Position numbers and translations under genes: made by a program. Below the pieces are notes generated by a model. It had not been told where the DNA came from. It saw only the letters and a program-made list of their open reading frames with translations, and made no database searches. From an uncultured archaeon (GTDB taxonomy: Archaea > Aenigmatarchaeota > Aenigmatarchaeia > QMZP01 > QMZT01), in contig CAYUSU010000001.1 of NCBI GenBank assembly GCA_964447525.1, positions 26,012 to 90,011 of the forward strand: a stretch of 64,000 nt of DNA, read 5' to 3'. Numbering within the stretch: position 1 is the stretch's first letter; every line of letters starts with the position of its first letter. Below are positions 6,153-60,036 of the stretch, in pieces.

Positions 6153-6890
6153 TTACTTCTTCCCTTTCCTGCGTTTCCTCTTCTTCGCGATCACCAATGA
6201 GATGACCACAATTATAATAATTATTATCACTGCTATGATCATGTAGTCTTCGATATCCTGAGGGTTTGTTATGCTTTCAACAACGTTATTGATATCATCC
6301 ATACCAATTACTGGTATACCTTCGTTTTCTTCTTGGTTATCTCCCTCCGGAATTGCGTTATCCTCCTCTTCGTTACCCTGTGGTATTTCTCCGACCTGAT
6401 CACCAGCGATAACCGCAGGTTCTCCCGGAAGATCTGATCCTTCTCCTACATCGGATGGAGGGCTCGATGTTCCGTCGACCATCGGGCATTCATTCCCGTC
6501 CTGTGAGGTGAAATATATTATCCTCTTTTCGAGGCCCGCATGTATATCGTCCATGCTGATAAAGAAATCGTATTTTCCGAAAAGAATGGCTGGAATGTAT
6601 CTGTAAATTCCGTATTTCTGCCGGTACTGATCGAATACCTGCTCATTCCCCTGAACGTCGAGATCGTATGTTATTACCATCGTGTTGTTGTATATTTGTG
6701 TCATGTTCTGGATGAATTCATCTATGGTCAGGCAGTTGAGACAGTTCTGTTCGGTGAAATGAATAAAGCATACGTCATTCGTCTCTTGTGACATAATTCC
6801 TGGTGCAATTAAAAGAAAAAATAATATTGGAATCATTACCAAAATCCATTTCATACTTAATTTTTTATTTGGTTTGATATTTATCCCCAT
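6153..6890 (-). CDS. secreted, C-terminally membrane-anchored protein. It has a thioredoxin-fold-like N-domain (CLNC) and an acidic E/D/N/G-rich linker
   Basis: Signal peptide (the likely true start is MKWILVM at 6854), a C-x-x-C motif, an acidic low-complexity region, and a C-terminal TM helix plus KKRKRRKGKK tail. It sits directly downstream of the giant VWA gene. Confidence 0.4.
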   Translation of the reverse strand: MGINIKPNKKLSMKWILVMIPILFFLLIAPGIMSQETNDVCFIHFTEQNCLNCLTIDEFIQNMTQIYNNTMVITYDLDVQGNEQVFDQYRQKYGIYRYIPAILFGKYDFFISMDDIHAGLEKRIIYFTSQDGNECPMVDGTSSPPSDVGEGSDLPGEPAVIAGDQVGEIPQGNEEEDNAIPEGDNQEENEGIPVIGMDDINNVVESITNPQDIEDYMIIAVIIIIIIVVISLVIAKKRKRRKGKK

Positions 6891-13538: not shown

Positions 13539-13541
13539 ATT

Positions 13542-42312: not shown

Positions 42313-42540
42313 ATGGGTAAGAAAAATCATAAAACATCGGAGAAGATATTGAAAATTCTGGTCAAACACGGATACGGCCTGACGATAGAGGAAGTATCCA
42401 ATTTTCTGAAAATAAACCGTTCTACAGCGTCCAAATATCTGGCCATTCTGGAGGCAAAGGAGCGAGTTCTTATACGCGAGGTCGGGAAGGCAAAGCTCCA
42501 CTACATAAAAAGCAGGGAGATGGAAAAATGTCTGAAATGA
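42313..42540 (+). CDS. small winged-helix transcriptional regulator (75 aa)
   Basis: The HTH-like LTIEEVSNFLKINRSTASKYLAILEAKERVL; its stop overlaps the start of the giant LamG gene (ATGA). Confidence 0.6.
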   Translation: MGKKNHKTSEKILKILVKHGYGLTIEEVSNFLKINRSTASKYLAILEAKERVLIREVGKAKLHYIKSREMEKCLK

Positions 42541-45500: not shown

Positions 45501-46259
45501 CCGTTGGAAGGACTTAACGTTCCGCAGAACACGACCTTTACAGTTAATGCTACGGTGTATTGCAGAAACGAAACCTGCGGCAATATCACCGGAACGGTTA
45601 GATATAATGAATCATCGGCAAACCCTGATACTATCATAAGCACTACATCTGGGGACAATCCATTTTACATCATCAGCGAAGATAATCCGCAGAACTGTTC
45701 AACCAACCCTCTGGAGGAGGATGAGTATTGTAACATAACATGGACAGTTAATGCGACTGGAACCATAGGTTCAAACTACGAGATAGGTGTATTGTTCCAA
45801 TCCAACTACACGGGTGTGAGTGTAAATTATACCGGAAACAATACGGTCGAGATAGCTGACTGTTTTATAGACATTAGTCTTTATTGGAGTGCCGTGTCAT
45901 TCGGTTCATTGATCCCAGGTGAAAGAGGAAACGCTTCCGGTAATGATAATGACGAATATAACATTACGATAGAATCCACCACCTCCTGTAACATAGATTT
46001 GTACATTAACGGGACTGATATTGAAAATACGAGCCTCGGATATACCATAGGAGTGGGAAACGTGTCATGGAACAACGTTTCTAATGATTATGCATCTTCA
46101 TACTCTTTGAGCAATTCTTGGAATCCTGTAAAGAAAGTAGTTCCGCCATCCACGAACACGACTACATGGTATTGGCTGGATATGCCATGCTGCATAGCAT
46201 CCGGTTTCTATGAAGGATCGGTAGAAATAATGGGAATAAAGACCGGGGAGAGTCCTTAG
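42537..46259 (+). CDS. giant (~1240 aa) surface glycoprotein with two LamG/concanavalin-A-like lectin modules arranged as a ~1.6 kb tandem duplication
   Basis: Each LamG_3-like module ends with DEVAIWNRTLSSSEIQDLY or DEVAIFNRTLSQSEIQDIY, followed by a repeated YPVFQNKTVNEGSYVWNVLAFDND... domain. N-terminal signal/TM. More than 60 N-x-S/T sequons. The start is probably at 42537 (the track gives 42528). Confidence 0.8.
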   Translation: MKSQFSFGDKTQISAMFVFLVLTLVLISYVVISAGNIIVTLVAPQNESTDDDGIIEFISNLTDDFEIVNATLYTNISGWAAEETRWNGEIPYNDTGLVLLLHLNNESAFGENDTHVYDWSGNGNNGTFQGNPEYNASGVFGGMLELSGSGDYIMIPNGMNTLMNNLYNWTLQMWIYPTSDERNLLGTSAGGEFWIWVGDNYDIGFDQYFGMDPSYVENVSSTPDYAVQPDQWNHLIITRNVTDFRIYRDGQFFANLTSTETKNGNYGTDMQIGRYDSSSSNDFQGYMDEVAIWNRTLSSSEIQDLYSYTKTSFYPVFQNKTVNEGSYVWNVLAFDNDSSSDWSESNYTFTYDSSGPTIQLPFYTNATKKNSSDSLTLNMSVSDSLTQPDTCLVYVAGQSSNQTLSYSNGWCNGSISLMDSNPGNSTIYTYANDTLNNWGLNDSYVVWIAGAPVTPTPEINSTDGTNHSSQDLNCFDTITDPDSDNLNVTVHWHMNGVFNVSYDYNDSYSSGYDFVSTLGSGNTSVGQRWSCSLRLFDGKNYSNWGNSSNLTIISESDNLIVVSLTSPDDDSTGTDGIITFISNVTDDNEVINATLYTNISGPWTAEETRWNGEIPYNDTGLVLLLHLNNESDFGENDGLFYDWSGNGNNATGTDMNYSAGKFGFGLYGEGGDDGTKDFPVVTQTASLNVTNLTIMVWVKMNSLSKDNSLVANDWWGQGDGYGLYWDAADEDFIWDPRNGTMYCGALLSDSVSVQEGTWYHVAVTHNRTSARIYLNGTEVGSYDDYDCIIGYDDSDTYIASYNNWNSYLNGSIDEVAIFNRTLSQSEIQDIYNYTKTIFYPVFQNKTVNEGSYVWNVLAFDNDSSSDWSESNYTFTYDSSGPTIQLPFYTNATKKSGMDPLTLNVSVSDSITQPDTCLVYVSGQSSNQTLSYSSGWCNGSISLTDSNPGNSTIYAYANDSANNWGLNDSYVVWIDNTGENSWLEVELITPLEGLNVPQNTTFTVNATVYCRNETCGNITGTVRYNESSANPDTIISTTSGDNPFYIISEDNPQNCSTNPLEEDEYCNITWTVNATGTIGSNYEIGVLFQSNYTGVSVNYTGNNTVEIADCFIDISLYWSAVSFGSLIPGERGNASGNDNDEYNITIESTTSCNIDLYINGTDIENTSLGYTIGVGNVSWNNVSNDYASSYSLSNSWNPVKKVVPPSTNTTTWYWLDMPCCIASGFYEGSVEIMGIKTGESP
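42650..45480 (+). repeat. ~1.6-kb intragenic tandem duplication (LamG module plus following domain) with patches of perfect identity (43473..43644 = 45048..45219)
   Basis: The protein repeats align over ~500 aa. Nucleotide patches of 172 bp and ~90 bp are identical between otherwise diverged copies. Confidence 0.8.
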
Positions 46260-46268: not shown

Positions 46269-47063
46269 ATGAAAATAAACACAAAAAAATTAATCACTTT
46301 GGTTTTCCTAGTGGTTGTTTTAAATATGATTATCACAACTTCTGCGGAGGCGAAGATATCACTCGGTTCTGTCACCGGGATGAATCATGCAGAAGTTGAA
46401 CCTGGGGATTCAGTGGAATTAAAAATCCTTCTGTTCAACATACACGAGAGTTCAACAATGATTGTGGATTTGAATGTAGAAAGCAAACCTGACGGATGGA
46501 ATGTTCGGATAGAACCGGAGAGGATAGAGTTGCCTTATACGATACCGTCCAAATATGTCGATCAGGAATCCGGTTATGAATATCTCAGCGTCCCTAATAC
46601 CGGTGAAATGATAAAAGTGATGCCCGTCGTCGCAAGTGTGAATGTCCCGTCGAATGCGGTACCCGGGGAATATTTTGTAAATATTGTGGCTTCTGCGAGA
46701 AAAACTGGAGGAGTGTTATCGGCAGCTCAGCGCAGGAATTTTGATTTCACTGTCAGGATTTTGGATGAATCTTACGACCATCAGACCAAGGCAAAAAGCA
46801 ATAATATACCCATGGGAGGCCTTTATTCCGATCCAGAGACGGAAAAGACAAATAAATTGGTTGGTGATGAAATAATAAACAAGACAGAAGAAAAACCAGA
46901 TGAAAATGTTACTAATATAATTAAAACCGATACGGAAGAGCGACCGGATCCTGAGCCTTTGTCTGGGATAACTGGAATGATGATTTCAAGCAGTTCGGTT
47001 GTTGCTGTATTCATGTGGTTGGTGGTAATAATAGTTATTATAAAGGTGAGGAGATCCAGATGA
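46269..47063 (+). CDS. secreted protein with a C-terminal TM anchor (S-layer/NEW3-like beta domain)
   Basis: Signal peptide MKINTKKLITLVFLVVVLNMIITTSAEA; C-terminal TM plus KVRRSR. Confidence 0.6.
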   Translation: MKINTKKLITLVFLVVVLNMIITTSAEAKISLGSVTGMNHAEVEPGDSVELKILLFNIHESSTMIVDLNVESKPDGWNVRIEPERIELPYTIPSKYVDQESGYEYLSVPNTGEMIKVMPVVASVNVPSNAVPGEYFVNIVASARKTGGVLSAAQRRNFDFTVRILDESYDHQTKAKSNNIPMGGLYSDPETEKTNKLVGDEIINKTEEKPDENVTNIIKTDTEERPDPEPLSGITGMMISSSSVVAVFMWLVVIIVIIKVRRSR

Positions 47064-48442
47064 ACAAAAGAATTATTGTGTTTTGCTTGTTGATGATATC
47101 CGTGTTCTTAGTGTTGTCCCCTGATTTTACCGGATGGCTGACGACCAGTGGCACGCTTAGAATAGGTTTCTCTGTCGCGCAAAAAACAGATATTTGCATA
47201 ACTATTTTAGAAATTCCGGTATCCGTTCCCAGATACCAGTCAACCAGCATTACCTTCTGGGTCGAGAACTGCGGTAATTCCCCGGCTTCCGGTAATCTGC
47301 ATATATACATAATGAATTCAAACAGCAACACCACATCAGCCCATCTGGTCAGAGAATTCCCGAACATAATCCCGCTAAAATCCGTCATCCTCGTGGAGCA
47401 GTTCATTGCGAGTTTCGGACCCGGTAATTACTGGATTTCTGTCGCCTACGAAATCAACGGAACAATGTATCCCGCTAAAAACCTTACCGAGACATTCAAT
47501 GTCGTCGCTTCTTACTGCATCCCCGGGGAGGTGAAATGTTCCGGAAATGACATAATCAAGTGTTCGATGTATGGTGACACATGGGACTATGTAATGACTT
47601 GCCCCTACGACTGTCTTAACGGGGGATGCGCCTTCCTGTCCGGTGGTGCTCCGCCACCAGTTGTCCAGGGAGAACCACTGACAGACGTTTACGTAGAATA
47701 TTCCCAGAACGTCAGCCTTAATCCCGGTATGGAATTCCCGCTGATCTTCAAGGTGATCAACATAGGTGACACGGATGTTATTGACCTCACACTGAGCCTT
47801 CGTTCCAACGAAATATTTTCGGAACTGGAATCGCAATTGATTTCGGAACTGGAAATCAACGAATCAGTGGTTTTCCTCGGAGAATTGTCTGTACCGGAAA
47901 ATATCGAAGAAGGAATATATTATGTCGATTGGGAACTGACTTCAACAAAATTAAATAAAACTGGAAAAATAATGGTGAACATAACGTACTCTACAATGAA
48001 ATACAAATCAGAAAATCTGATTTCGTATTACGATTATCTTATAGAATATGTCGATGAAGAGATAGCGGACGCAAAAAGGAACGGAAAGAACGTTTCCATT
48101 CCGATGGGTCACAGCAAGGACGCTAAATTCGAACTCGCTGTCGCGAAGGAGATGCACAGGTTGGGACTTTATGAAGAAGCTATCATGCAACTTGATTTAA
48201 CAAGAAAAAAGATAAAGGATATGGTCACTACCTTGGTAAGGGCTAAATTCCTAATGAGAGAAGAGAAACCCACTGAGATAACACCGGAACCGATAATAAT
48301 AGACATCGATACACGACTTATAGCAATAGCCGTGCTTATTGTGGGAATTTCGGTAGTGATTTTCATTGCGTACAAAAAATATCTGAAGAGAAAGATGCTC
48401 CTTAGTCCGGGTAAGTGGGAACCTTCTAAAATAAAATTATAA
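47060..48442 (+). CDS. secreted protein with a C-terminal TM anchor
   Basis: GGTGAGGAG RBS then the ATG at 47060 (MNKRIIVFCLLMISVFLVLS); C-terminal TM plus KKYLKRK. The 5' end overlaps the previous gene. Confidence 0.6.
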   Translation: MNKRIIVFCLLMISVFLVLSPDFTGWLTTSGTLRIGFSVAQKTDICITILEIPVSVPRYQSTSITFWVENCGNSPASGNLHIYIMNSNSNTTSAHLVREFPNIIPLKSVILVEQFIASFGPGNYWISVAYEINGTMYPAKNLTETFNVVASYCIPGEVKCSGNDIIKCSMYGDTWDYVMTCPYDCLNGGCAFLSGGAPPPVVQGEPLTDVYVEYSQNVSLNPGMEFPLIFKVINIGDTDVIDLTLSLRSNEIFSELESQLISELEINESVVFLGELSVPENIEEGIYYVDWELTSTKLNKTGKIMVNITYSTMKYKSENLISYYDYLIEYVDEEIADAKRNGKNVSIPMGHSKDAKFELAVAKEMHRLGLYEEAIMQLDLTRKKIKDMVTTLVRAKFLMREEKPTEITPEPIIIDIDTRLIAIAVLIVGISVVIFIAYKKYLKRKMLLSPGKWEPSKIKL

Positions 48443-48453: not shown

Positions 48454-50841
48454 TCATTCGAGAACTAACGGGCTCGCTTCATGATACGTGTTCATCCTTT
48501 CTTCAATCTCTGAAACTTTCTTTTTTATCGGTCCTAATCTGTGGTTCTTACCCTTTATGTCGTCAAGTTTAATTTTTATTTTTTCTATGTCCGTTGCCAT
48601 ATCCAAAAAATCCTCTGAATCCTGCGATTGCGCTGTTTGGTCACCCCTTGGGTCGTCTTCCAGAATTTCTTTCATGTTTTCTACCCTTTCTTTCATATCT
48701 TTCCCGGATTCCATTATCCTTTCACCCAATAAATTATCTATCTGACTTTTTTCGGTTTTTATCTCTTTTGCTACCCTTTCCAGATCTTCATTGAGAATTT
48801 CAAATCTCTTCTGGTAATCAGTTACCATGTCATTGACGAATTCCTTTACCTTCTCCTTGAAATCCTTAATGTCCCTCGTTTTTTCGTTTATTACTGATCT
48901 GAACTTTTCTTGATCTGCTTTTGTCTGTGTAATGAGATCATTGGATACCTTCAGAAGCTTGTTTTTTATATCATCGCTGAAATTCTTTTGTCTATTTTCC
49001 ATGTCCCGGAATCTTTTTTCGTAAGAATTAATGTTATCTATCGCATTTGCTATTTCACTCATTGTTGATTTCTTTTCGTTTCTAAGGATATTTACTTTAT
49101 CTTCGATGTCATTCTCAGTTTGTGCCCTCAGCCTGAATATATCATCCTTGGTTTCCTTTATCTTCATGTCCATGTCGGAAACCATGTTCTTAAGCTGCTC
49201 GATAACCTCCAATTTCCCTCTGTCGTAATCCTTGCTCCATTTCATCTCTTCGAATTCGCCGATGATGCCAGAAAGTGAATTTTCCATTTCGTTTATCTTT
49301 ATTTGAAGATCGTTTACCGTTCTTCTGTTTATGTTCGGACTCTGTATTTCCAGCTTGCTGATCCTGTCTTCAAGTGTTTTCATAGACGTTGCTATCATCT
49401 TTACATCCTTCCACGCGCCGTCCTTCATCATCTTTTCCTGATTCAATTCCCCTGTAAGACCGGCTACCTTGGAATTGAGGTCGAATACTGCCTGTTTGAT
49501 GTTACTGAAACCTTTGAGCTTACCAAGATCTATATCCTCTTTCAGTTTCATCTTACCAAACTCATTTTTCATGTCAGATATCTGCATTTCCACCTCTGTT
49601 TTGAAATTGCCAAAGTTGTTTACAATCTCCTTTATTACATCTCTTTTCGTGTCCATTTCGTTTATTTTGATTTTCATCCCTTCGACAATACCCTCGAAAT
49701 CATCAATCTTGCCAAGACCCATTTTAAGGTCATCCATTGATCCTTTAACATCCATTATCTCCTGAAGCTTACCTGAAAGGTCAGTTACTTTCCTTTCCAG
49801 ATCAGATACACGTTTCTCATTCCTCGTTTCGGTTTCCTTCATCTTGTTTATGACCCGTTCGATCATTTTCATCAGGTCTTCCTTTGTTTTTTTGGTTTTG
49901 ATCGCGTCTACCCCTTCCTTTAGTTTGAGATCTTCTATCTCTTTTTTCAGATCCCTGATGGAATTTTCGGTGTTCTTGATTTTATCTAGATGATCATTGA
50001 TTTCCCTTTCACCTTCCTTTAGTTTGAATATTCTTTCGTCAAGCTCATTTTTCATCCTGTTAAGAACCTCGCCGGATTTATTGGATCTGAGCCACTCTTC
50101 ATTATCGTTTTTCATCCGTTCTATTCCTACCAGAAGGTTTTTCAGTTCTTCCTTGGTTTTTTCTACATTGTCTTTCCCGCTAACCTTTTTTATTTCCGTG
50201 CTCAGATCAGCAAGCTTTTTTGCAACATCTGATCTGAATTTCATATCCCTCATGCTCTCGGAAGGACGTTTTGAAGCCTTTGCATTTATTTCAATCTTGG
50301 CCATATGCTCAAAAACAGAATTTTTCATCTTCCCTAAACCAGCTATTTCCTTTTCATTTTTTTTGATTGATTTTTCAAGAGAATTTAATCTTGAAATTGA
50401 CATAATGTTCTTTTTGGTGTTCATCTTTTCTTCCATTTTCTTGATGTTTTCCTTCACCGAAAGAACTTCCGTGACCTTCTTTTCAAGATTGTTCTTCACG
50501 TCATCTATTTGGTTTCTGATATCAACCTTGAACTTCTCAAAATCATCAGATTTCCCGGAACCAACCCTTACATCAAGATCATCGATATGTTTTTCAAAAG
50601 AAGCTAATTTTTCTGATATCCCATTGGTTTGGTTTTTCGTGAGATCATTTTCCGTTTTCAGATCTTTTATTTTGTTTCCGACCTCTGCCCTGAACTTCAG
50701 ATCATTCATGCTGTCAGGGGACTTACCGGGGGATTTTTCTAGTTTTTCCTCTAATCTTGATACCCTTCTGGCAGTATCCATTTTAAGGTTTTCCAGTTCA
50801 CTGGTTAATTCCTTCAGCGTCTGAGCTATAGGCTTCATCAA
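48454..50841 (-). CDS. large K/E-rich coiled-coil protein (6th and last gene of the coiled-coil array; 795 aa)
   Basis: Essentially continuous heptad-like K/E/D/L/I/N composition with no enzymatic motifs; translationally coupled to the upstream gene. Confidence 0.65.
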   Translation of the reverse strand: MMKPIAQTLKELTSELENLKMDTARRVSRLEEKLEKSPGKSPDSMNDLKFRAEVGNKIKDLKTENDLTKNQTNGISEKLASFEKHIDDLDVRVGSGKSDDFEKFKVDIRNQIDDVKNNLEKKVTEVLSVKENIKKMEEKMNTKKNIMSISRLNSLEKSIKKNEKEIAGLGKMKNSVFEHMAKIEINAKASKRPSESMRDMKFRSDVAKKLADLSTEIKKVSGKDNVEKTKEELKNLLVGIERMKNDNEEWLRSNKSGEVLNRMKNELDERIFKLKEGEREINDHLDKIKNTENSIRDLKKEIEDLKLKEGVDAIKTKKTKEDLMKMIERVINKMKETETRNEKRVSDLERKVTDLSGKLQEIMDVKGSMDDLKMGLGKIDDFEGIVEGMKIKINEMDTKRDVIKEIVNNFGNFKTEVEMQISDMKNEFGKMKLKEDIDLGKLKGFSNIKQAVFDLNSKVAGLTGELNQEKMMKDGAWKDVKMIATSMKTLEDRISKLEIQSPNINRRTVNDLQIKINEMENSLSGIIGEFEEMKWSKDYDRGKLEVIEQLKNMVSDMDMKIKETKDDIFRLRAQTENDIEDKVNILRNEKKSTMSEIANAIDNINSYEKRFRDMENRQKNFSDDIKNKLLKVSNDLITQTKADQEKFRSVINEKTRDIKDFKEKVKEFVNDMVTDYQKRFEILNEDLERVAKEIKTEKSQIDNLLGERIMESGKDMKERVENMKEILEDDPRGDQTAQSQDSEDFLDMATDIEKIKIKLDDIKGKNHRLGPIKKKVSEIEERMNTYHEASPLVLE

Positions 50842-51574
50842 TATCTCCTATCTTTTCTTTCAGGTCGCTTATTCCCGCCCTGACGGATTCGACCTCTTTC
50901 TTTATCTCATTTTTAAAGTCTTCCAGATCGGTAAAAGCTTCCTTGATCAGTTCATCACCTTCGGGGAATCCTCTTTCATTGATGAATGCCAAACCCTTTT
51001 CCAATGCTTGCATTCTGGCATCGATATTATCTATTTTCTGTGTGTGGCCTTCAAGGAAAGTCAGTCTGGAATCCATTGTGTTTGAGACCCTTGCTATCTC
51101 CTGAACTATCTTACTTTTCTCAAGTTTGAATTCTTTGACCCTTTCCATTACCTGCTTTGATATTATAGAAAGAGATTCAGTTGTGCTTAATTCCGCATTA
51201 TATTTTTGTATCGCTTTTTTTATTTCCGATATTTTATTTCCTATTTCCCTTTGTGATGATCTTAGTTTGTCAAAATTATCAATGGTAGATTTGAGTTCTC
51301 TATTAAAATTGGTTTCGTTCCGTTTTAACGAAGTAATGTCATTCCGCGTGTCAACGAATCTGTCCTCAACCTTATTGAAAGTCTTCCTTACCCTTTCGTC
51401 TATCCTTATGAACTTATCAATGTCAAGACCTTCTTTGTGTTTTCTTAGCGATCTCATCTCTTCCAGAACATCATTAACAATATTCTCAAGTCTCGTTATC
51501 CTCTTGTCTGCAAGTTTCCTCTCTTCCTTCATTGCCTTTATCCCTTCGAGTATTCTCATTCCTATTTCGTTCAT
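50798..51574 (-). CDS. K/E-rich coiled-coil protein (5th of array; 258 aa)
   Basis: The N-terminus MNEIGMRILEGIKAMKEERKLADKRITRLENIVNDVLEEMR is paralogous to that of the 4th gene. Confidence 0.65.
   Translation of the reverse strand: MNEIGMRILEGIKAMKEERKLADKRITRLENIVNDVLEEMRSLRKHKEGLDIDKFIRIDERVRKTFNKVEDRFVDTRNDITSLKRNETNFNRELKSTIDNFDKLRSSQREIGNKISEIKKAIQKYNAELSTTESLSIISKQVMERVKEFKLEKSKIVQEIARVSNTMDSRLTFLEGHTQKIDNIDARMQALEKGLAFINERGFPEGDELIKEAFTDLEDFKNEIKKEVESVRAGISDLKEKIGDIDEAYSSDAEGINQ
51450..51543 (-). repeat. 94-bp perfect direct repeat shared with 51943..52036 (5' ends of two adjacent coiled-coil genes)
   Basis: Compared base by base; encodes the shared KLADKRITRLENIVNDVLEEMR. Confidence 0.8.
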
Positions 51575-52125
51575 TACCTTTCCAACTCCTTAAGGATATC
51601 CTTGAGAACCTTTTCAGCTTCCATTTCCTTTTGTTTTTTTGCTTTGTCTATCTCCGGTTTCATTTTTTTCCTCACTTCTTTTTCCTTTTCAGCGATTCCT
51701 TTCTTCAGCGTTATGACCTTCTTTTTAATTTCCTCAGATTCTTTCCCCTTCTTTGCTATCTTATTTTCCATTTCCTTTCTGATTTCAGTATCCTTGGTCA
51801 CGACCTTCTTCAGTTTGGTTACATTAGCTTTCATCCTCTTTTTTTCTCTGTCTTTTTCTGACATGTCTCTTTCCATTTTTTTCATTCTAACGCTGATTTC
51901 TTTGTAATTATCATCTATTTTTGCCATCTTTTCAGAAATTATTCTCATCTCTTCCAGAACATCATTAACAATATTCTCAAGTCTCGTTATCCTCTTGTCT
52001 GCAAGTTTCCTCTCTTCCTTCATTGCCTTTATCCCTGAGGTTATTTTCATCGCAAGCTCATTCATCAGTTTCCAGCTCCTTGAGTATGTTCTTGAGAATT
52101 TTTTCAGAATCCTTTTCTTCATCAT
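51574..52125 (-). CDS. K/E-rich coiled-coil protein (4th of array; 183 aa)
   Basis: The N-terminus MNELAMKITSGIKAMKEERKLADKRITRLENIVNDVLEEMR shares a 94-bp perfect DNA repeat with the 5th gene. Confidence 0.6.
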   Translation of the reverse strand: MMKKRILKKFSRTYSRSWKLMNELAMKITSGIKAMKEERKLADKRITRLENIVNDVLEEMRIISEKMAKIDDNYKEISVRMKKMERDMSEKDREKKRMKANVTKLKKVVTKDTEIRKEMENKIAKKGKESEEIKKKVITLKKGIAEKEKEVRKKMKPEIDKAKKQKEMEAEKVLKDILKELER

Positions 52126-53674
52126 TTCTTGTTTTTTTAAGTTTCTCTTCCATGTTATCGAGCTTTAGATTGAATGCCATTTCCATGGCCTTTGACCTGT
52201 CACTCATTTTCTTTAGTCCGGAGTTCAGTTCCCTTATTTCATTTTCCAGTACCTTCATGCTCCCAACGTTACCCACCAGTTCCGTTTGCCTGTTTCTCAG
52301 GACCCCTACCACGGAACTGGCTTCATTCACTTTTCCTTCAATCCTTTTCAGTTCCTTGAGCCAGTATTCCCTTTCCTTTAGGAATTGCTGCATCTTGATC
52401 ATTATATCCTTCTCGAATTTTTCTACTTCTGCTTTTTTGTCTGACAGGCCGCTGTTTATTTTTACCGTGTGATCATCCATTCTTCTTTCTACAGCGTTCA
52501 TCTTGCCATTAACGAAATCCTTTGTCATCTCCATTTCATTTTTCAGAGTGTTTATGGTTTGCTCGGTTTCATGCGCTTTTGATATCATATCACTCGTGTC
52601 AGATTCCGTTCTTTTTGCGAATTCATTGACGTAATCCGACATTTGTTCTGCCTTGTTCAATATGTTGGATACCTGTTCTTTGTGCTTCTCCAGCCGGTCC
52701 TTCACCCTGTATTCCAGCGATCCGAAATTCTTTTTATGTTCGATCATGTCCGCCTTTATTTCCTCGATCTTATCGTTGAGATCCTTCTTCTCATCCAGCA
52801 CCCTTTCCAGTTCCACGTAAACCTTTTCTTTTATAACCTTTGTTTCACTTATCAAATTGTCACGTAAATTGAGAAGATCATTTTTAAGATTTTCGTGAGG
52901 GTTATTTGCGCTGTGCAGCTCTTCGTTGAGTCTTTCGATTTTTTTGTCGATAATGAACTGGCTGTTGTATACCTTTGTGAAGGATTTTTTTATCGATTCG
53001 AACGTTTCCTTAAGTTTTTTGTGATCACTTTCGGATTTATTTTCCCTGTTCTTCAATTCCTTTATGTCCAGAGAAATATTTTCCAACTTTCTGGCATTCT
53101 TACCGATTGAAGATAATTCCGATTCAACGGATTCCCTGATCTTTTCAACATCCGCTTCCGTGCTGCCGTCTTCCTTTTTCAGCGCCTCGATCTCGGATGA
53201 GATTTTTTTTATGAATTCGGAATTCTTCCCGATTGAAGATAATTCCGAATTTATCATGCTCTTGATTTTGACGGTGTCGATGTCTTTTTCTTTGTTTTTG
53301 TTTTTCAGCGCTTCGATCTTGGAATAAATATCATTTATCTTATCTGTATTTTCCTTCATTGAAGAGATCCCGGATTCAATCGATCCTTTTAGTTTCATTA
53401 AACCGCTTTCTGATGTCTTGTCTTCCGCCTTAAGCCCCTTCAGTTCAAGTAAAACATCATTTATCAAATCGGATTTTTTCCCAATCGATTTTTCATTTTT
53501 TTTCATTCCCCTGATCTCGATAGAGAGATTATCTATCATTGCAGCCTGTTTTTCGATTTTTACCATCATCTCCTTGGTGAGGCTTTCATAACTATTTTTC
53601 CATTCGTCCCTCTCCTTCTTGAGTTGATCTATTTTTTCCCCAACTAACTGGAATTTGCCGTCCATGCTATTCAC
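52058..53674 (-). CDS. large K/E-rich coiled-coil protein (3rd of array; 538 aa)
   Basis: Coiled-coil composition with repeated SSIGKN...ALK(K/N) modules. Confidence 0.65.
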   Translation of the reverse strand: MNSMDGKFQLVGEKIDQLKKERDEWKNSYESLTKEMMVKIEKQAAMIDNLSIEIRGMKKNEKSIGKKSDLINDVLLELKGLKAEDKTSESGLMKLKGSIESGISSMKENTDKINDIYSKIEALKNKNKEKDIDTVKIKSMINSELSSIGKNSEFIKKISSEIEALKKEDGSTEADVEKIRESVESELSSIGKNARKLENISLDIKELKNRENKSESDHKKLKETFESIKKSFTKVYNSQFIIDKKIERLNEELHSANNPHENLKNDLLNLRDNLISETKVIKEKVYVELERVLDEKKDLNDKIEEIKADMIEHKKNFGSLEYRVKDRLEKHKEQVSNILNKAEQMSDYVNEFAKRTESDTSDMISKAHETEQTINTLKNEMEMTKDFVNGKMNAVERRMDDHTVKINSGLSDKKAEVEKFEKDIMIKMQQFLKEREYWLKELKRIEGKVNEASSVVGVLRNRQTELVGNVGSMKVLENEIRELNSGLKKMSDRSKAMEMAFNLKLDNMEEKLKKTRNDEEKDSEKILKNILKELETDE

Positions 53675-56063
53675 TGAGCTTTTTAAGAAGTTCTTCCATG
53701 CCGGCCTGCTCTTCTTCGGAGACCGACAGTTCCTTGGAAAGTTTTTGCATCTTTACATTAAGATTTTCCATTTTCTGGTCAATACCGTGCTCCATCCTTT
53801 CAATTTTGTTCTCAAAGTTTTTCATTTGGTTATTGAGACCTTTTTCAATCTCTTTCCTTATAGGAGCGAGCATCGCATGTACCTCTTCCACGACGCTGCT
53901 TCTGAGTTTCATGAACTTTTCTATTTCACCATCAAGTATCTTTACCCTGTCATTGACACCGGCTTTCGCCTTTTCTATTTCTTCCATCATCTCTCCGAAT
54001 TCCTCTTTCTGTTTTTCTTCAGATTTCAAAACCCGTTTTTCTATCAAACCTGAAATTTTCCCGAGACCTTTCTTCTCTACATCCAACTCTGATTTTAGTG
54101 TCTTTATTTTGTCATCAAGCTTATCGTCAGATTCACCCATCTTATCGTCGAATTTCCTTTCGAACTTTTCTATCTCAACATCAACTATCTTGTCCGCACT
54201 CTCCATCTTCTTGTCAACGGACGAGAGTTTGGAATCTACCTTGAATACCATCTCACCGACCTTATCGTCAAACTGGTTAATGACAGACTTGACTATGTCA
54301 TTCTTTATTTTCTCACCCTTCTTTTCGAATCTTTCAATCTCCTTCCCTATCTGCTTCAAACTTTCTTCGGCCTGACCTTTCACGACAAGGAATTCCTTCA
54401 CGACCTTGTCCACGTCATTCCTTCTCTCTATCTCACCTTTCTCTATCCTTTTGTCTATCGAGACAGTAAGGCCTGAAAGATTGCCTGCAATCATGTCAAT
54501 CTGCTTCCCGAAGTCATCCATCTTTTCCTCTTCCTCCGTTTTCATTTCATCGAATCTTTCCCTTATGTTGTCCTTTATTCTTCCGAATGCTTCCTGGAGG
54601 TCCTTTCCCTTTACGATCTCCTCCTCCGAGAGTTCTTTCCTGAACCCTTCCAGCATTTTGTTTGTCTTTGTCATATCCTTTTCCACACCGTTTGCTATCA
54701 TTAATACCCTCTTGCCGATGCTCTGCCTGGCCTCTTCGATTTTTTCGGAAAAATCAACTTTCATTTTCTCGAAAGAATCTTCTATGCTTTTATCGGAACT
54801 TGTTTTTCCCCTTTCAATTTCGTTCCTCATTATTTCGATCGTCTTCTTTACACGGTTTTCGAAATCCAGCGAACCTTTCTCGTTCATTTTAAGCCACTTA
54901 TCCACTTCCTTTAGCGTATCGTTAACTATCTCCTTCTTGATTTCTTCTCCCCTTTCCGCGAATCTTTCAATCTCCTTCCCTATCTGCTTCAAACTTTCTT
55001 CGGCCTGACCTTTCACGACAAGGAATTCCTTCACGACCTTGTCCACGTCATCCTTTCTGGCTTTATCGCTTTCATCAATCTTCTTTTCCATTATGCCTGA
55101 AAGGTTTTCAATGACCTTTTTCGTGATGTTCAGGTCTCCCTGAACAGAAAACATTTTTTTGCTGAAATCATCAGCCAGCTCTTTGTTGTTGACTTTCAGT
55201 TCTTTCTCCAGCGCTCTTCTGATTGCGTCAAGGTGCTGGATGTTTTTTTCGTCATGGGCATTCCTCTCCTTCTTGACACCTTCTATCACCTTACCGAATT
55301 CGCCTCCCATATCGGTAATCCTGCCCTCGATCTCTTTTGCTCTCCTTTCGTAGGATGAAGTCATGTCTTTTAGTTTTTCGTCCAGTCCCAACTGGATATT
55401 TGAAATAAGCTTTCCGATGTATCTTTCATTCTTGGTATCCTTTTTCTCCACGTCGCTTTGTATCAGTCCTATGGCTTTACCCACTTCGGTCTTCATCTTG
55501 CTGATATCGTCATTGTTTGATTTTCTCATCTCCTCCAGGAAAGCCTTCATTCCTTTAATACTCTCGGCAAGCCCCCTATGGGTTTCCCCCAGCTTTTTGT
55601 TCACGCTTTCAGAGTCTTCCTTCCCTGACTCTATTGTAACGATCCTTTTCAGGAGTTCATCATCATATTTTGACATTTCTTTGATATTGCTCTCGAACTG
55701 CGCTTGGTTCTTCTCCAAAGTGAAAACCCCGGCCTTTATGGCACCGACCACTTTTTCAAAATCGTCTATCCTCCCCAGACCGTTCATAAGGGCTTTTTGG
55801 TGACCCCTTATCTCCGTTAGGTTGGAATCAAAATTATCAAGTTTGTTTTTGATCGGTTTGATTTGGCTATCAACAAATTCAGTAAGCTTCGTTCCCGCCT
55901 CGCTGTAGGCGTATGTTGCTTCCTTTAATTTTTCTGCAAGTGCCCTGTTCTTCTCGGAGAGCATTCCCTTCTCGTTTTTCAGCGTTTCCAGAAATTGTTT
56001 TTGCTGTTCCTTGTTATTTTTCATTTCCTTTAGTTTCGACTGAATCTCGTTCAGTTCTTTCAT
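53667..56063 (-). CDS. large K/E-rich coiled-coil protein (2nd of array; 798 aa) with an internal duplicated segment
   Basis: DVDKVVKEFLVVKGQAEESLKQIGKEIERF occurs twice, encoded by a 93-bp perfect DNA repeat. Confidence 0.65.
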   Translation of the reverse strand: MKELNEIQSKLKEMKNNKEQQKQFLETLKNEKGMLSEKNRALAEKLKEATYAYSEAGTKLTEFVDSQIKPIKNKLDNFDSNLTEIRGHQKALMNGLGRIDDFEKVVGAIKAGVFTLEKNQAQFESNIKEMSKYDDELLKRIVTIESGKEDSESVNKKLGETHRGLAESIKGMKAFLEEMRKSNNDDISKMKTEVGKAIGLIQSDVEKKDTKNERYIGKLISNIQLGLDEKLKDMTSSYERRAKEIEGRITDMGGEFGKVIEGVKKERNAHDEKNIQHLDAIRRALEKELKVNNKELADDFSKKMFSVQGDLNITKKVIENLSGIMEKKIDESDKARKDDVDKVVKEFLVVKGQAEESLKQIGKEIERFAERGEEIKKEIVNDTLKEVDKWLKMNEKGSLDFENRVKKTIEIMRNEIERGKTSSDKSIEDSFEKMKVDFSEKIEEARQSIGKRVLMIANGVEKDMTKTNKMLEGFRKELSEEEIVKGKDLQEAFGRIKDNIRERFDEMKTEEEEKMDDFGKQIDMIAGNLSGLTVSIDKRIEKGEIERRNDVDKVVKEFLVVKGQAEESLKQIGKEIERFEKKGEKIKNDIVKSVINQFDDKVGEMVFKVDSKLSSVDKKMESADKIVDVEIEKFERKFDDKMGESDDKLDDKIKTLKSELDVEKKGLGKISGLIEKRVLKSEEKQKEEFGEMMEEIEKAKAGVNDRVKILDGEIEKFMKLRSSVVEEVHAMLAPIRKEIEKGLNNQMKNFENKIERMEHGIDQKMENLNVKMQKLSKELSVSEEEQAGMEELLKKLSE
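54326..54418 (-). repeat. 93-bp perfect intragenic direct repeat shared with 54959..55051
   Basis: Encodes the duplicated DVDKVVKEFLVVKGQAEESLKQIGKEIERF. Confidence 0.8.
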
Positions 56064-58090
56064 ATATTTTTCAGCTCCTTCAGAATCTCGTTAATCTGGG
56101 CTTTCTGTCTTTTTGAACTTTCCATGAGCTCCTTTCTTTCCAGCAGGCTCTGTGTGACCACGTTATCAAATTGACCTTTGAGCATCTTCATGTTTTCGTT
56201 GACCTTTGAAATCTTATCGTTCATATCATCGATATCCTTCTTGTTCTTATTGGTGTCCTTACCGAGACCACTGAGGAAATCGAGACCCTTGTTTATTCCG
56301 TTTATCTGAGTGATCATATCCCTCTTTTCTCTCACAGCGTCGCCTTTTATTTCATTTATAACGGTCTTCAGATCATCTATTTCCGTCGTCTTTTCACTGG
56401 TTTTTTCAACGTGGTCTTTCATCTGGAGGAGAGATCTTACCGTACCCTGAAGGTCTTCTATGTCATTCTTCATATCCTTCAGGTATTCTTTCACGTTTAA
56501 CTGCGAGTCGTTGAATTTTTCTATTTTCGTTTCGAATTTGTTTAGCTGGTTGCCGAACATCTTTATTGATGGGTTGGCCAGATCCTCCAGCTGTGATATC
56601 CTGGACTCAACGGAGTCTATGCTGTCCTTGTTGTTTTCGGTTTTCTTTTCGAATATCTTTTCCATGTCATTAAGTTTCGCATCAACGTTTTCCTTGAACT
56701 TGTAGTTTATGACCTCTTCCGCATCCCTCGTAAAATTCTTCCTTTCTTCCTCAAAATCATTTATCCTTTCTTCCATCTTCCCGATCTGGTCATCCATTAG
56801 CTGGATCGTAGGTCTGACATAATTCTCCATTTTCGTTATTTTCGAAACCATCTCGTTAACCTGTTCCTTGGCGATGATAAGGTTCTTTGTTGATTTGTCC
56901 TCAAGTTCATTGAATCTGGCAGCAGAAAAATCCTCGAAAAGATTCTTTACGTCTTCCTTCATGGATTTATTGACATATTCCCGGACTTTGCCAATCTTCT
57001 CGACAAATTCCTTCTTCATTTCCTTGGAAAATTCCTTCTGTTCATCGATCAGGTCCTTGATGTGGGTATCTTTTTCGTTGAGGGTTTCGATTATTTTTTT
57101 ATTTTCCTTTTCCTTGTCTGAAGAGTCTTCCTTTATTTTTCCTATCTCTTTGAGCCCGGCCTTTATTTTCGAAACCTCGTTCATGGTCGTTGACATCTTC
57201 TTGTTGAGGGATGCTAGAACTTCCTTTATCTTACCGACATTATTGTACAGCGGCATTACTTGGATGTCCAGTTTTTTCGTTATTTCTTTTGGTATAATAT
57301 TATTCGATATTTCGTTTGCCGATAAAACAAGCTTGTTCAGCTTTTCTATGTTTTCCGCCCCGAACTTCTCGTTAAGGAAATCAAGCCTTTCTTCCATGTT
57401 GGCAAGCTTGCTCATTTCCTTTGTCTGATCTTTTAGCCTGATGAATTTGGATTCGGATGATTCTTTGAATTCATCCAGATCACTCTTTAACTTTCTCAGA
57501 GAATTCTTTACTTCTATGAGATCATCCTTGAAATCCATCGTTTCCCCGAATGCCGATAATCCCTTTGAAACGTCTTCCCCGCCGCTGGTTGGAATATTGG
57601 GCGGTGCCGTTAACTTTTCGCTCATTTCTTTGAGAGCTGATTCTATAGAACCAATCTTTTCGTCAGTGGATTCCTGCAGCTTTGAAACGATTTTTTTAAC
57701 ATTATCACCACCAGCGCCCTTCTCGGCACTTTTTACTTTTTCACCCAACTGAGAAATAGCACCTGTTATTGCCTTGATCTGATCATTAAATTTCTTTTCG
57801 ACATTGTCAAGCATTGGTTGAACATTCTGAACGGGTTGCGACTGGATAGGTGATTTTTCCGGGAGGTTTGCCGCAGGAGCGGAAGAAATTTCATCTATTA
57901 CGCTGGCAAGGTCTTCTTTCTCGCTTTCGAGTTTTTTTATTTTTTTCTTTTGTTCTTCAAGTTCATTTTTCGCATCGTCTTTACCAGAAGCCTTTTCTAT
58001 TTCCTCGTCTAGATCATTGATACCTTCAAGACCTTTTTCTTGATCAGCCATGGACACCCCCCTCGTATTTCGTATGACAGCTTGGCTCAA
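56060..58090 (-). CDS. large K/E-rich coiled-coil protein (1st of array; ~660 aa)
   Basis: The probable start is the ATG at 58051 (MADQEKGL), preceded by GAGGGGGGTG; the track start at 58090 is TTG. It has its own promoter-like region upstream. Confidence 0.65.
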   Translation of the reverse strand: MSQAVIRNTRGVSMADQEKGLEGINDLDEEIEKASGKDDAKNELEEQKKKIKKLESEKEDLASVIDEISSAPAANLPEKSPIQSQPVQNVQPMLDNVEKKFNDQIKAITGAISQLGEKVKSAEKGAGGDNVKKIVSKLQESTDEKIGSIESALKEMSEKLTAPPNIPTSGGEDVSKGLSAFGETMDFKDDLIEVKNSLRKLKSDLDEFKESSESKFIRLKDQTKEMSKLANMEERLDFLNEKFGAENIEKLNKLVLSANEISNNIIPKEITKKLDIQVMPLYNNVGKIKEVLASLNKKMSTTMNEVSKIKAGLKEIGKIKEDSSDKEKENKKIIETLNEKDTHIKDLIDEQKEFSKEMKKEFVEKIGKVREYVNKSMKEDVKNLFEDFSAARFNELEDKSTKNLIIAKEQVNEMVSKITKMENYVRPTIQLMDDQIGKMEERINDFEEERKNFTRDAEEVINYKFKENVDAKLNDMEKIFEKKTENNKDSIDSVESRISQLEDLANPSIKMFGNQLNKFETKIEKFNDSQLNVKEYLKDMKNDIEDLQGTVRSLLQMKDHVEKTSEKTTEIDDLKTVINEIKGDAVREKRDMITQINGINKGLDFLSGLGKDTNKNKKDIDDMNDKISKVNENMKMLKGQFDNVVTQSLLERKELMESSKRQKAQINEILKELKNI

Positions 58091-58132
58091 TCCTTATGAG
58101 CTGTCTTGCGCTGGTTTCGTATGACAGCTTGG
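58068..58132 (-). promoter_or_regulatory. two ~25-bp direct repeats (TTTCGTATGACAGCTTGG[C/T]TC[A/G]ATC) in the 5' leader of the first coiled-coil gene
   Basis: Copies at 58068..58092 and 58115..58139, 47 bp apart. Confidence 0.4.
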
Positions 58133-58163
58133 TTCGATCAATATTATCTGCAGTTCTTGTTTA

Positions 58164-58193
58164 TTGTACAAAAGTACTATATATATTGTACAA
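58164..58193 (-). promoter_or_regulatory. promoter-like region of the coiled-coil array: two palindromic TTGTACAA boxes flanking TATATATA
   Basis: TTGTACAAAAGTAC TATATATA TTGTACAA at 58164..58193, ~110-140 bp upstream of the ATG at 58051. Confidence 0.4.
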
Positions 58194-58321
58194 TTTATAC
58201 TTAATGTAAACTTGCATGATTTATAAATAACTCTGGAAAACTTGAACAAAACATGTGAGTCGTCATTCGAAATAAACACTGGACGACGTGGACAAAAAAC
58301 ATATAAAATTCTTCACTTAGA

Positions 58322-59155
58322 TTATATCATTTTCTTTATCTCGTCTTTTGTTATCAGTTCCCTTTGCTGTTTCTCCCGCCCAACACCGAATAATTTCAGG
58401 AATGATGTAAAAAATCCTTGTGGTTTGTATTCTATCCCAAGAAGTTTTCCGGCCAGTTTTTTATATTCTTTACCAGAAGGGGAATTCGGATTGTAAAGCA
58501 CGACTGGTACCTTAAGCGCAAGGCTTTTGAGAATATTCTTGTCCATGGGGACCGTGGATATTATCGGGAGTTCAACAAGTTGTTCGATCTCCTGAGAACT
58601 AAGTTCGTATTTCTCTTTACCTACCATGTTCAATACGACACCGAGTGCTTTGGTTCCTATGTCATTCGCAACCTGATGGCATTTTATTATGTCCATTGTA
58701 GACGGAACGAAAGGCGTATTTATGAAAATCACTTCATCGCTTGCCTGGAGTGTCGCCATTGCATCCCTCCCGAGGCCCGGCGCTGAGTCGAGAAGAATTA
58801 TGTCAGTCTTACCGAAAAGATCCTTTATCACGTGTTTGAGTTTGGCTATGTCCACTCCCTTCAGGTCATTGTACGAAAGGGAAGCCGGTATAACCCTTAG
58901 ACCCGGTATGTGATAATCATACATTGCATCGTGTATCTTCACTTCGTCTTTCAGAACCTGGTTCAGCGTGACAGGGCAATAATACATCCCGAGATAAAGA
59001 CCGAGATGCGATGTTGAAATGTTCGTATCAATAATCACTACATCTTTTTTGTAGTGTGAAGCGAGAATGGAACCTAGATTCGCCACGGTCGTAGTCTTAC
59101 CGACTCCGCCTTTCCCCGACACGATTCCAATGACCCTGGTCATTATAACACCCAA
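58322..59155 (-). CDS. MinD/ParA-family deviant Walker-A ATPase
   Basis: GIVSGKGGVGKTTTVANLG deviant Walker A and LDSAPGLG Walker B; 277 aa. Confidence 0.85.
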   Translation of the reverse strand: MGVIMTRVIGIVSGKGGVGKTTTVANLGSILASHYKKDVVIIDTNISTSHLGLYLGMYYCPVTLNQVLKDEVKIHDAMYDYHIPGLRVIPASLSYNDLKGVDIAKLKHVIKDLFGKTDIILLDSAPGLGRDAMATLQASDEVIFINTPFVPSTMDIIKCHQVANDIGTKALGVVLNMVGKEKYELSSQEIEQLVELPIISTVPMDKNILKSLALKVPVVLYNPNSPSGKEYKKLAGKLLGIEYKPQGFFTSFLKLFGVGREKQQRELITKDEIKKMI

Positions 59156-59188
59156 TGAATATTTTGTTTCCCAATTTATTATATTGGT

Positions 59189-59860
59189 TTATTGCCACTT
59201 AATACTGCACAATATTCTCGAAAGTTCGTTCTCGTTACGGACAACCATCGGGAAATCCTTTGCGTTTTTGAACTCAGAGTTTAGCTTGAACATGTAATTT
59301 ATCATGTTTTTTTCAGACGAAAGCGATATCAGAGTGGATATTATTCTCAACACCACGTCTGCCTTATATTTCCTAGTGAAAGACATTATGTTGGAAAATA
59401 GCACGAACATGAATATGTCTGAAAATATGTTCTGCCCGCTTCTTCCCACTATGTGTTTATCTCCCTTGTAAAGAAGCTTTATTTTCTTTATGTCAAAAAG
59501 AACGTTATGGTATTTCTGGACGAATTTTTGCACTATATTCCATTTTTCCCTTATCAGATTGTTAGGCATCCACTGTCCGGGCGCTTCCAGTACCTCCAAA
59601 GGCCTGTATTTTTCGTTTATGAAGCTAGGAATCCATTCGAACCTGGGTTTTAGGTGTTTTCCCGATTTCGTGAGGTATCCTTCGTTTATCATACATCTGA
59701 AAAGTGGCTTTCCGAGACTCGATTCATTGTGGTAAAGGTAGTTGGTTTTTATGTTCCACTCGTTCTGTATGCTAAACAAAGAGACCCCTTTCTCGCTTCC
59801 GGCGCAATTTAACCATATCAACCAGAAGTTTTTATAACCGGTAAGCTTCGACCTTGTCAT
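59189..59860 (-). CDS. hypothetical protein (223 aa) immediately upstream of the MinD-like gene
   Basis: 33-bp gap to the MinD gene, so probably co-transcribed. A TTATAAAT TATA-like box lies ~45 bp upstream. Confidence 0.5.
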   Translation of the reverse strand: MTRSKLTGYKNFWLIWLNCAGSEKGVSLFSIQNEWNIKTNYLYHNESSLGKPLFRCMINEGYLTKSGKHLKPRFEWIPSFINEKYRPLEVLEAPGQWMPNNLIREKWNIVQKFVQKYHNVLFDIKKIKLLYKGDKHIVGRSGQNIFSDIFMFVLFSNIMSFTRKYKADVVLRIISTLISLSSEKNMINYMFKLNSEFKNAKDFPMVVRNENELSRILCSIKWQ

Positions 59861-60036
59861 AAATGATCAGTATTTCTTGTATGAATATACTATTAACGGA
59901 TTTATAAGTGTTTCTTCTTCGTGGCTATGCGTATCGATAATATGAGAGTTTACGTTTGTACTAAAAATTTTCGAAGAAAGACACCTTACCCCCAAAAATG
60001 AACATTAGACGTATGTTATAATCGATTTTTTTTAGC

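Follow-up and report, generated by a model that had tools for sequence, protein, structure and literature searches.

In bacteria, DivIVA and MinJ serve as coiled-coil landmarks for membrane-bound MinD, and crescentin, FilP/Scy and the Helicobacter Ccrp proteins are self-assembling rods that lie beneath the membrane. In the PomXYZ system of Myxococcus xanthus, the activating activity of PomX sits in an N-terminal peptide. PomX is presented as the ATPase-activating coiled-coil protein of that system (PMC7993993, PMC13170346). Archaeal MinDs are widespread, and the roles studied are only haloarchaeal. MinD4 of Haloferax volcanii has a membrane-targeting sequence (MTS) that is homologous to the bacterial one and essential for oscillation (bioRxiv 10.1101/2020.04.03.021790), and the cargoes of haloarchaeal MinD4 and MinD2 are motility structures (archaella, chemosensory arrays) and CetZ1 (bioRxiv 10.1101/2020.04.03.021790, PMC11588486, PMC11621097). 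No dedicated activator or cargo adaptor was named in the MinD literature searched. Here, a stretch of 64,000 nt (the window; GenBank GCA_964447525.1, contig CAYUSU010000001.1, positions 26,012 to 90,011 of the forward strand) from a Candidatus Aenigmarchaeota (DPANN) metagenome-assembled genome (MAG) was analyzed. Eight minus-strand open reading frames in 48454-59860 encode a winged-helix protein (unk223), a MinD ATPase and six coiled-coil proteins (cc1 to cc6), and were present at the coordinates given by the first-pass annotation of this DNA. They belong to a phylum-restricted, strongly conserved module made of MinD, the winged-helix protein, usually a transmembrane (TM) coiled-coil protein, and long coiled-coil proteins, located beside a giant surface glycoprotein. 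No description of this gene cluster was found in the literature searched. The locus is a complete, conserved candidate partner set for archaeal MinD (winged-helix protein, TM anchor, coiled-coil rods), and could matter in the setting of DPANN attachment structures and filaments: cryo-electron tomography of other DPANN archaea showed attachment organelles and cytoplasmic filaments whose protein components were not identified (PMC11420986).

The likeness of the module to PomXYZ is one of analogy only. A ParA/MinD ATPase is linked to long coiled-coil proteins, with adjacency in all loci that have sufficient flanking sequence, and cc1 of most relatives has a short basic N-terminal peptide that recalls ATPase activation by PomX. 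However, PomZ acts on the nucleoid whereas the module MinD has a helix of the membrane-targeting type, and the module, archaeal and limited to one phylum, joins 3-6 coiled-coil genes with a winged-helix partner, a TM anchor protein and a linked gene for a giant surface protein. No match to PomX or PomY was obtained in the family libraries or by PDB profile search, and no direct PomX/PomY comparison was made. With Haloferax MinD4 and MinD2 the module shares the archaeal MinD family and a C-terminal sequence resembling the bacterial MTS, and the haloarchaeal proteins likewise have roles apart from classical MinCDE division control (bioRxiv 10.1101/2020.04.03.021790; PMC11588486; PMC11621097). 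It differs in that no dedicated coiled-coil operon or winged-helix partner was named in the haloarchaeal MinD literature searched, and in that archaellum and chemotaxis genes are lacking nearby. The pairing of MinD with coiled-coil partners, and the long heptad rods with distinct ends, resemble bacterial MinD-DivIVA/MinJ and the bacterial coiled-coil-rich proteins, but there is no sequence relationship, and unlike the latter the module has several different rods whose genes keep a fixed order, which vary in repeat number and have head and tail motifs in common. Neither MinC nor MinE was seen in the window. Long coiled coils are also shared with SMC, Rad50, the archaea-specific SMC-related protein (ASRP) and arcadin-4, from which the module proteins differ in having no Walker A/B heads, hinge, zinc hook or cysteines. 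The module belongs to neither PomXYZ, its closest counterpart in logic, nor the haloarchaeal MinD systems, the closest by family, and the ATPase alone comes from a described family.

The ATPase scored above the cut-off of the archaeal model TIGR01969 minD_arch (234.5 bits, cut-off 201.75, E = 1e-69), whereas the bacterial MinD model TIGR01968 gave 107.7 bits only (cut-off 212.9). A deviant Walker A motif, SGKGGVGKTT (core GKGGVGKT), lies near the N-terminus and is invariant among orthologues. PDB matches spanned residues 1-236, with E = 1.9e-44 for 1HYQ (A. fulgidus MinD-1) and E ~3e-37 to 4e-37 for the Pyrococcus structures 1G3Q and 1ION. The model score, the Walker A motif and the 1HYQ match together confirmed the earlier call of a deviant-Walker-A MinD/ParA ATPase and placed it as an archaeal MinD. 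At the C-terminus (tail region 58322-58372), an MTS-like helix, GFFTSFLKLFGV, is followed in the window by a 17-aa charged tail, and the helix is kept in all 30+ MinD orthologues. We take GFFTSFLKLFGV to be closely similar to the membrane-targeting sequence of bacterial MinD (...GFLKRLFGG in E. coli). From these features, we infer that MinD binds the membrane in an ATP-dependent manner via this C-terminal amphipathic helix.

Related loci (labeled L below) were collected from 25 metagenomic MinD orthologues at 62-75% identity and a further 5 that were reached via unk223 or cc1 homologues. Winged-helix gene, MinD, cc1-type and cc2-type genes were adjacent in all loci with enough flank (28/28), and the order was giant glycoprotein, unk223, MinD, (small ORF), cc1, cc2 and final coiled-coil gene. 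In the two most divergent loci, cc1 and cc2 are on the opposite strand, and the glycoprotein gene is also inverted in L035; all still adjoin unk223-MinD. Co-conservation of the ATPase with the coiled-coil genes, which the first-pass annotation had suggested examining, was therefore seen in every related locus examined. The six-gene array that it described is real in this genome, but as a general layout it did not hold: it is a clade-specific expansion, and most relatives have three genes (cc1 of ~640 aa, cc2 of 669 to >1,359 aa and a final gene of 397-844 aa). The N-terminus of cc3 matches that of the final gene in three-gene arrays, and the cc6 C-terminus '...SPLVLE' corresponds to the '...AVIFE / ...PVILE' ending of the final gene in every array. 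As cc3 keeps the N-terminus of the ancestral final gene and cc6 its C-terminus, the extra genes were attributed to expansion or splitting of that gene, from one into four in this genome and its near relatives.

Comparison with near relatives was made for the individual genes. For cc6, 77% identity was found to JW754_00705, a protein of a sister MAG (GCA_016932215.1, Candidatus Aenigmarchaeota) that is collinear at ~75% nucleotide identity and whose contigs end exactly at two internal repeats; these repeats are therefore shared. No internal stops were found in any gene compared with the sister MAG. The dN/dS ratios were 0.011-0.081 for unk223, MinD, cc2 and cc5 (MinD, 0.011; cc5, 0.042), and for cc1 and cc6 dS was saturated and gave no ratio (dN = 0.17 and 0.13). 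A third species (GCA_964441265.1), with 53% cc1 identity, has the same six genes at 680/798/634/178/247/827 aa; the L038 orthologues of cc4 and cc5 have 178 and 247 aa. An independent JGI assembly gave identical gene calls for cc4 and cc5.

Start codons were refined by orthologue comparison and the independent JGI gene call, which placed ATG starts in MinD, cc1, cc3, cc4 and cc6 (Table 1) and gave a summed length of ~3,210 aa for cc1-cc6. The junctions between successive coiled-coil genes became -4, +1, +2, -1 and -38 nt (minus, overlap; plus, spacer). Tight packing was thus borne out, whereas the 68-nt overlap at the upper end of the 4-68 nt range given earlier vanished under the refined starts. 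The region has low GC and a strong purine skew, both because of AAA, GAA and AAG codons. Gene neighbors are archaeal housekeeping genes, including RLI, ArgRS, PyrG and Mrp, and together with the Candidatus Aenigmarchaeota match of cc6 they place the locus on the chromosome of a DPANN archaeon.

The six proteins are rich in charged residues (K 11-25%, E 12-15%) and contain 0% Cys, 0.2-1.8% Pro and almost no Trp. Hydrophobic periodicity peaked at 3.37-3.63 residues (power 12-42 vs. ~1 in random sequence), and heptad-window coverage was 0.41-0.75 vs. 0.05-0.09 in shuffles. Walker A motifs, signal peptides and TM helices were absent from all six (maximum Kyte-Doolittle 19-mer <=0.73). Periodicity, heptad coverage, hydropathy and motif scan therefore agreed with the first reading of these proteins as coiled coils without TM helix, signal peptide or Walker motif. 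An AlphaFold2 model of cc1 was helical throughout apart from two linkers and contained no globular domain, at low confidence (pLDDT 48). Sequons (N-x-S/T) numbered 0.4-0.6 per 100 aa, at or below shuffle expectation and equal to RLI, ArgRS and PyrG; given this density and the absence of signal peptides and TM helices, the coiled-coil proteins were assigned to the cytoplasm.

The first coiled-coil protein, cc1, is also the best conserved (periodicity 3.49 residues). It contains a P/Q-rich linker as well as a conserved 'GGEDVSKGLSAFGETMDF' block, and its tail motif is ILKELKNI. In cc2, a conserved ~130-aa N-terminal region is followed by a rod built of repeats, with a periodicity of 3.63 residues rather than 3.5 and the tail LLKKLSE. 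The internal duplication noted earlier in this protein is present, but is larger than the 30 aa given (183 nt at 82% identity, within a ~211-aa tandem duplication). Its orthologues carry 62-aa tandem repeats and range from 669 to >1,359 aa, hence rod length evolves by repeat number. The cc2 orthologue at L006:12897-16975 has about thirteen tandem 62-aa units at 60-94% identity. The cc3 protein contains ~84-aa internal repeats and ends in ILKELETDE, and cc4 (~25% K) ends in ILKELER. The near-identity of the cc4 and cc5 N-termini was reproduced, with 88% identity over 41 aa and 91% over 123 nt; cc5 shares its head with cc4 and lacks a tail motif.

Two short motifs recur at the protein ends. The tail motif (hydrophobic-hydrophobic-K/R/H-E/H-hydrophobic, as in ILKEL, LLKEF, ILKHV etc.), 2-5 residues before the C-terminus, was found in every cc1 and complete cc2 examined and, in the window and L038, also in cc3 and cc4; no complete array had it in its final gene (chance rate 0.018 per tail). 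The head motif (..I..LKKEKE.L..) at residues 11-18 was found in 20/26 downstream members, from cc2 onward (chance rate 0.009). The possibility that the 'LLKEL' tail is merely an embedded Shine-Dalgarno sequence was considered and rejected, as L009 and L014 retain the peptide without any Shine-Dalgarno-like 4-mer. Similarity found among cc1-cc6 was confined to the motifs at the two ends, to the cc4/cc5 N-terminus and to a weak resemblance of cc3, cc5 and cc6. Of the proposal that the array is a paralogous family rather than one frameshifted gene, the separateness of the genes was therefore upheld, and full-length paralogy of all six was not.

Family placement was sought in Pfam, NCBIfam, PADLOC and PHROGs. 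No above-threshold match to SMC, Rad50, chemoreceptor or tape-measure families was obtained for cc1-cc6, and no described family claims these proteins, which answers the homology question left by the first-pass annotation. Sub-threshold matches were to the coiled-coil arms of SMC, Rad50, ASRP, LmuB, JetC, ZorA and tape-measure proteins, and never to enzymatic parts; the best in NCBIfam were ASRP at 59.6 bits and SMC at ~40 bits, against cut-offs of 300-1,000. The ABC head halves of SMC, Rad50 and ASRP were not found in cc1-cc6, with matches confined to arm positions, and neither a hinge nor a CxxC zinc hook was present, all six proteins being free of cysteine and the cc1 model without a globular insertion. 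MCPsignal and HAMP gave no match at E <= 0.1 in cc1-cc6, which have no TM helix. Tape-measure PHROGs matched only cc5, partially (E = 2e-5 to 1e-3) and in the coiled-coil parts of 1,500-aa tape-measure proteins. The sole match above threshold, a marginal one, was PF04513 Baculo_PEP_C against the N-terminal region of cc2 (39.4 bits, cut-off 38). This model matched 23/38 cc1-family members at E <= 1e-4, and the match may reflect coiled-coil composition, as the family itself is helical and compositionally biased.

Word-indexed homology search saturated on K/E-rich words (2 and 6 relatives found), and an exhaustive profile search was used instead. The cc1 profile retrieved only 39 proteins at E <= 1e-10 from 1.84e9 representatives. 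A Pfam scan of the cc1-family members gave helical and coiled-coil families only, with the 'Filament' and crescentin-rod models matching 2/38 members, and a PDB profile search returned nothing meaningful.

The unk223 protein consists of an N-terminal winged helix-turn-helix, confirmed by a fold test, and a C-terminal helical domain, and its N-terminus is basic and flexible. Its family comprised 79 clusters at 44-100% identity, for which the sole source named was Candidatus Aenigmarchaeota. No Pfam or NCBIfam match was obtained, and a Foldseek search of the PDB was not significant (best E = 0.34, PadR-type two-domain proteins). The gene is strictly paired with MinD and directly upstream of it. 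Its position beside MinD was therefore given correctly in the first-pass annotation, where it appeared as a flanking gene of no assigned function, but it is no outsider: it encodes an integral, always-linked winged-helix partner.

In ~24 loci, a gene of ~90 aa lies between MinD and cc1. Its product combines a conserved N-terminal TM helix with a coiled coil and ends in 'KLIEELGK'. The locus studied here and its near relatives lack the gene, as do the two most divergent loci, and no copy was found elsewhere in the window. In 7/7 loci without the small TM gene and in 0/24 with it, MinD extends 11-20 residues beyond the MTS-like helix, and this perfect co-variation suggests that the two substitute for each other.

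The neighboring glycoprotein is ~2,000 aa long (orthologues, 1,962-2,113 aa), and matches the NPCBM_assoc domain. It has a single TM helix, at the C-terminal end, and a cytoplasmic tail of ~85 aa that is conserved and includes '...LIEKEYQEGIISEKAYNDLK...' (..LLEREYKEGLISEKAY..LK.RN..KL across relatives). Its gene adjoins the winged-helix-MinD pair in all loci with enough flank. The part within the window contains 61 sequons over 1,249 aa vs. 20.1 in shuffles (4.9 vs. 1.6 per 100 aa), and the three giant surface proteins of the window have 3.6-6.2 per 100 aa, about threefold over expectation.

Upstream of the glycoprotein gene, relatives have a K/E-rich protein of ~480-740 aa with three 'EGxISxxAY' motifs, and before it a supergiant protein of 4,400-14,500 aa. 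The 'EGxISxxAY' motif is common to the glycoprotein cytoplasmic tail and the K/E-rich protein. Its identification as SHOCT was rejected, Pfam SHOCT models being sub-threshold only (E = 0.05-0.09).

The intergenic region between MinD and cc1 had been called structured; its predicted folding was no better than that of shuffles (z = 0.12), and it holds a promoter and a tandem repeat instead. A TATA-like element, TTTATAAATCA, lies at ~58218-58228, and this element and a 'ATATAGTA' block are invariant in the window, the sister MAG (L004), L038 and L006. Given this conserved TATA promoter, the coiled-coil genes have a promoter separate from unk223-MinD. The sequence GGGGTG, Shine-Dalgarno-like, precedes the cc1 start codon in three of four species compared. 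The tandem repeat (58068-58150, minus strand, in the cc1 leader) has a 47-nt unit with an internal inverted repeat, present in two copies in the window, three in the sister MAG and none in L038 and L006. No Rfam match was found in the window, and a bacterial promoter and terminator scan was uninformative for an archaeon.

Two further non-coding elements were seen near unk223. A conserved element, AACAWACGKYTAATGTTC followed by a G-run, lies at 59989-60017 (minus strand), upstream of the winged-helix gene by ~130 nt. L007-L014 also have it, and L039 has a degenerate form; it could serve as a site for a regulator or as the signal for the 3' end of the glycoprotein gene. A 14-mer, ATAGTATRTTCATA, occurs once in the window (59880-59893), 20-33 nt upstream of the winged-helix start codon, and also in the cc1 promoters of two relatives (L038:9957, L006:10865). 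It was set aside as a shared operator, being probably the promoter/TATA region of near-leaderless transcripts.

The explanation given most weight, at a probability of roughly 0.45, is that the locus encodes a lineage-specific scaffold of coiled-coil proteins that lies close to the membrane, is governed by MinD and may be coupled to the surface glycoprotein. Under this explanation, which was assembled from sequence features, ATP-bound MinD dimers would attach to the cytoplasmic membrane via the conserved C-terminal amphipathic helix, and the coiled-coil proteins would be produced in fixed proportion from one operon. The shared head motif and the 'LLKEL' tail motif would join them into a long hetero-oligomeric rod or lattice beneath the membrane, where the small TM protein and/or MinD would hold the assembly. 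The MinD ATPase cycle would set the site, or the occurrence, of scaffold assembly, and the basic N-terminus of either cc1 or the winged-helix protein might stimulate it. The winged-helix protein itself would either be an adaptor for MinD or regulate transcription of the module. The scaffold would organize or anchor the glycoprotein, linked via its cytoplasmic tail, as is suggested by the invariable glycoprotein neighborhood. That ~10 kb of coiled-coil genes are kept, permanently linked to the glycoprotein, in apparently small genomes implies an important structural role. As the coiled-coil proteins are soluble and cysteine-free, they suit reconstitution, and the hypothesis is therefore testable despite uncultivated hosts.

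Several observations weigh against the scaffold. In small, slowly rearranging genomes, synteny could persist without physical coupling, and the pairing of a winged-helix protein with a ParA/MinD ATPase would equally suit a cassette for DNA segregation. By a simple scale, the MinD tail does not stand out in hydrophobic moment (rank 76/265), the window cc1 N-terminus lacks the basic KKK patch present in relatives, and in the window clade the 'KE' of the tail motif is partly encoded by an AAGGAG that is Shine-Dalgarno-like with respect to the next gene. A more specific form, a cortical membrane skeleton, was judged unlikely. It would be an ordered hetero-oligomeric coiled-coil rod or lattice with length set by repeat number, tethered to the membrane by MinD and the small TM protein and coupled to the cell surface through the glycoprotein tail, and MinD would choose its site, which could be e.g. 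a contact or attachment zone with a host cell.

Also unlikely is a free-standing shape or division cytoskeleton resembling the bacterial coiled-coil-rich proteins, in which MinD would place the division site, unk223 would be a local transcription factor and the glycoprotein synteny would be coincidental. Heptad-rich rods with head and tail motifs do recall intermediate-filament architecture, the 'Filament' and crescentin-rod matches in 2/38 members point the same way, and the separate promoter of the coiled-coil operon fits such a system. The glycoprotein gene, however, remains a neighbor even where local inversions have occurred, and it encodes a strongly conserved cytoplasmic tail; in Haloferax, division placement was reported in earlier studies to need none of the MinD homologues (PMC11588486), and is done by Arco (bioRxiv 10.64898/2026.07.23.738820). 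Somewhat harder to credit is a chromosome or nucleoid cassette, with the winged-helix protein binding a centromere-like site, MinD acting as a ParA-type ATPase and the coiled-coil proteins forming an SMC- or spindle-like scaffold on the nucleoid, which would bring the module nearer to PomXYZ or ParABS in logic. The DNA-binding-type fold of unk223, its basic flexible N-terminus and its strict pairing with the ATPase would suit such a cassette, as would the weak matches, in coiled coils only, to SMC, Rad50 and ASRP; PomX and PomY, moreover, are coiled-coil partners of a nucleoid ParA/MinD ATPase (PMC7993993). Yet the ATPase scores as archaeal MinD and not ParA, every MinD orthologue has the MTS-like helix, most species have a dedicated TM-anchored coiled-coil protein, and SMC head, hinge, zinc hook and cysteines are all missing. 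Near the locus, there was no repeated centromere-like site except the clade-specific 47-nt repeat.

Neither of the two remaining explanations retained appreciable probability. Cargo of a mobile element, virus or defense system (a tape-measure-, Lamassu/Wadjet- or Zorya-like component) is highly improbable: the weak matches to the LmuB, JetC and ZorA arms and to tape-measure PHROGs are confined to coiled-coil segments, never touching ATPase or MotA-like parts, and the locus has housekeeping surroundings (RLI, ArgRS, PyrG, Mrp) and synteny across the phylum. An artefact or decay, i.e. one or two giant coiled-coil genes broken by frameshifts, or functionless low-complexity K/E sequence, might be suspected from the low GC, the overlapping reading frames and the repeat-rich region in which the sister MAG contigs break. 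It is effectively refuted. The six-gene layout occurs in three species with the same boundaries and sizes, down to 53% identity, dN/dS is <=0.08 where estimable and internal stops are absent, which together refute a pseudogene; the independent JGI assembly calls the same cc4 and cc5, and the head and tail motifs are position-specific.

Table 1. Coordinates of the module genes and of associated features (window positions, unless a related locus is named).
Feature	Position	Strand	Details
unk223 (listed earlier as an unknown gene)	59189..59860	-	223 aa; directly upstream of MinD
MinD	58322..59143	-	start ATG 59143; 273 aa
Intergenic region with coiled-coil operon promoter	58052..58321	-	
cc1	56060..58051	-	start ATG 58051; 663 aa; GGGGGGTG Shine-Dalgarno-like run in front
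cc2	53667..56063	-	798 aa
cc3	52058..53665	-	start ATG 53665; 535 aa
cc4	51574..52065	-	start ATG 52065; 163 aa, matching JGI contig L001 call
cc5	50798..51574	-	258 aa; 38-nt overlap with cc6
cc6	48454..50835	-	start ATG 50835; 793 aa; terminal member of array
Giant surface glycoprotein, C-terminal ~1,300 aa	60079..64000	-	frame open to window end
Upstream EGxIS and supergiant genes	L038:1-8125; L039:1-8047; L037:1-9812; L035:11853-20660		in the source genome, just past window position 64000
Further giant/surface proteins	42528-46259; 6881-11182; 46269-48442	+; -; +	

The window is unusually rich in envelope genes, with giant and surface proteins in addition to the coiled-coil array. The further giant/surface proteins have very dense N-glycosylation sequons, two LamG domains with an internal duplication, VWA and NPCBM_assoc. 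At 12414-15290 (plus strand), the window also encodes a Vps4-like AAA ATPase with AAA, AAA_lid_3 and Vps4_C domains (CdvC model, 240 bits, cut-off 650), directly followed by a 582-aa TPR/SNAP-like protein, and the two may be an ESCRT-related pair.

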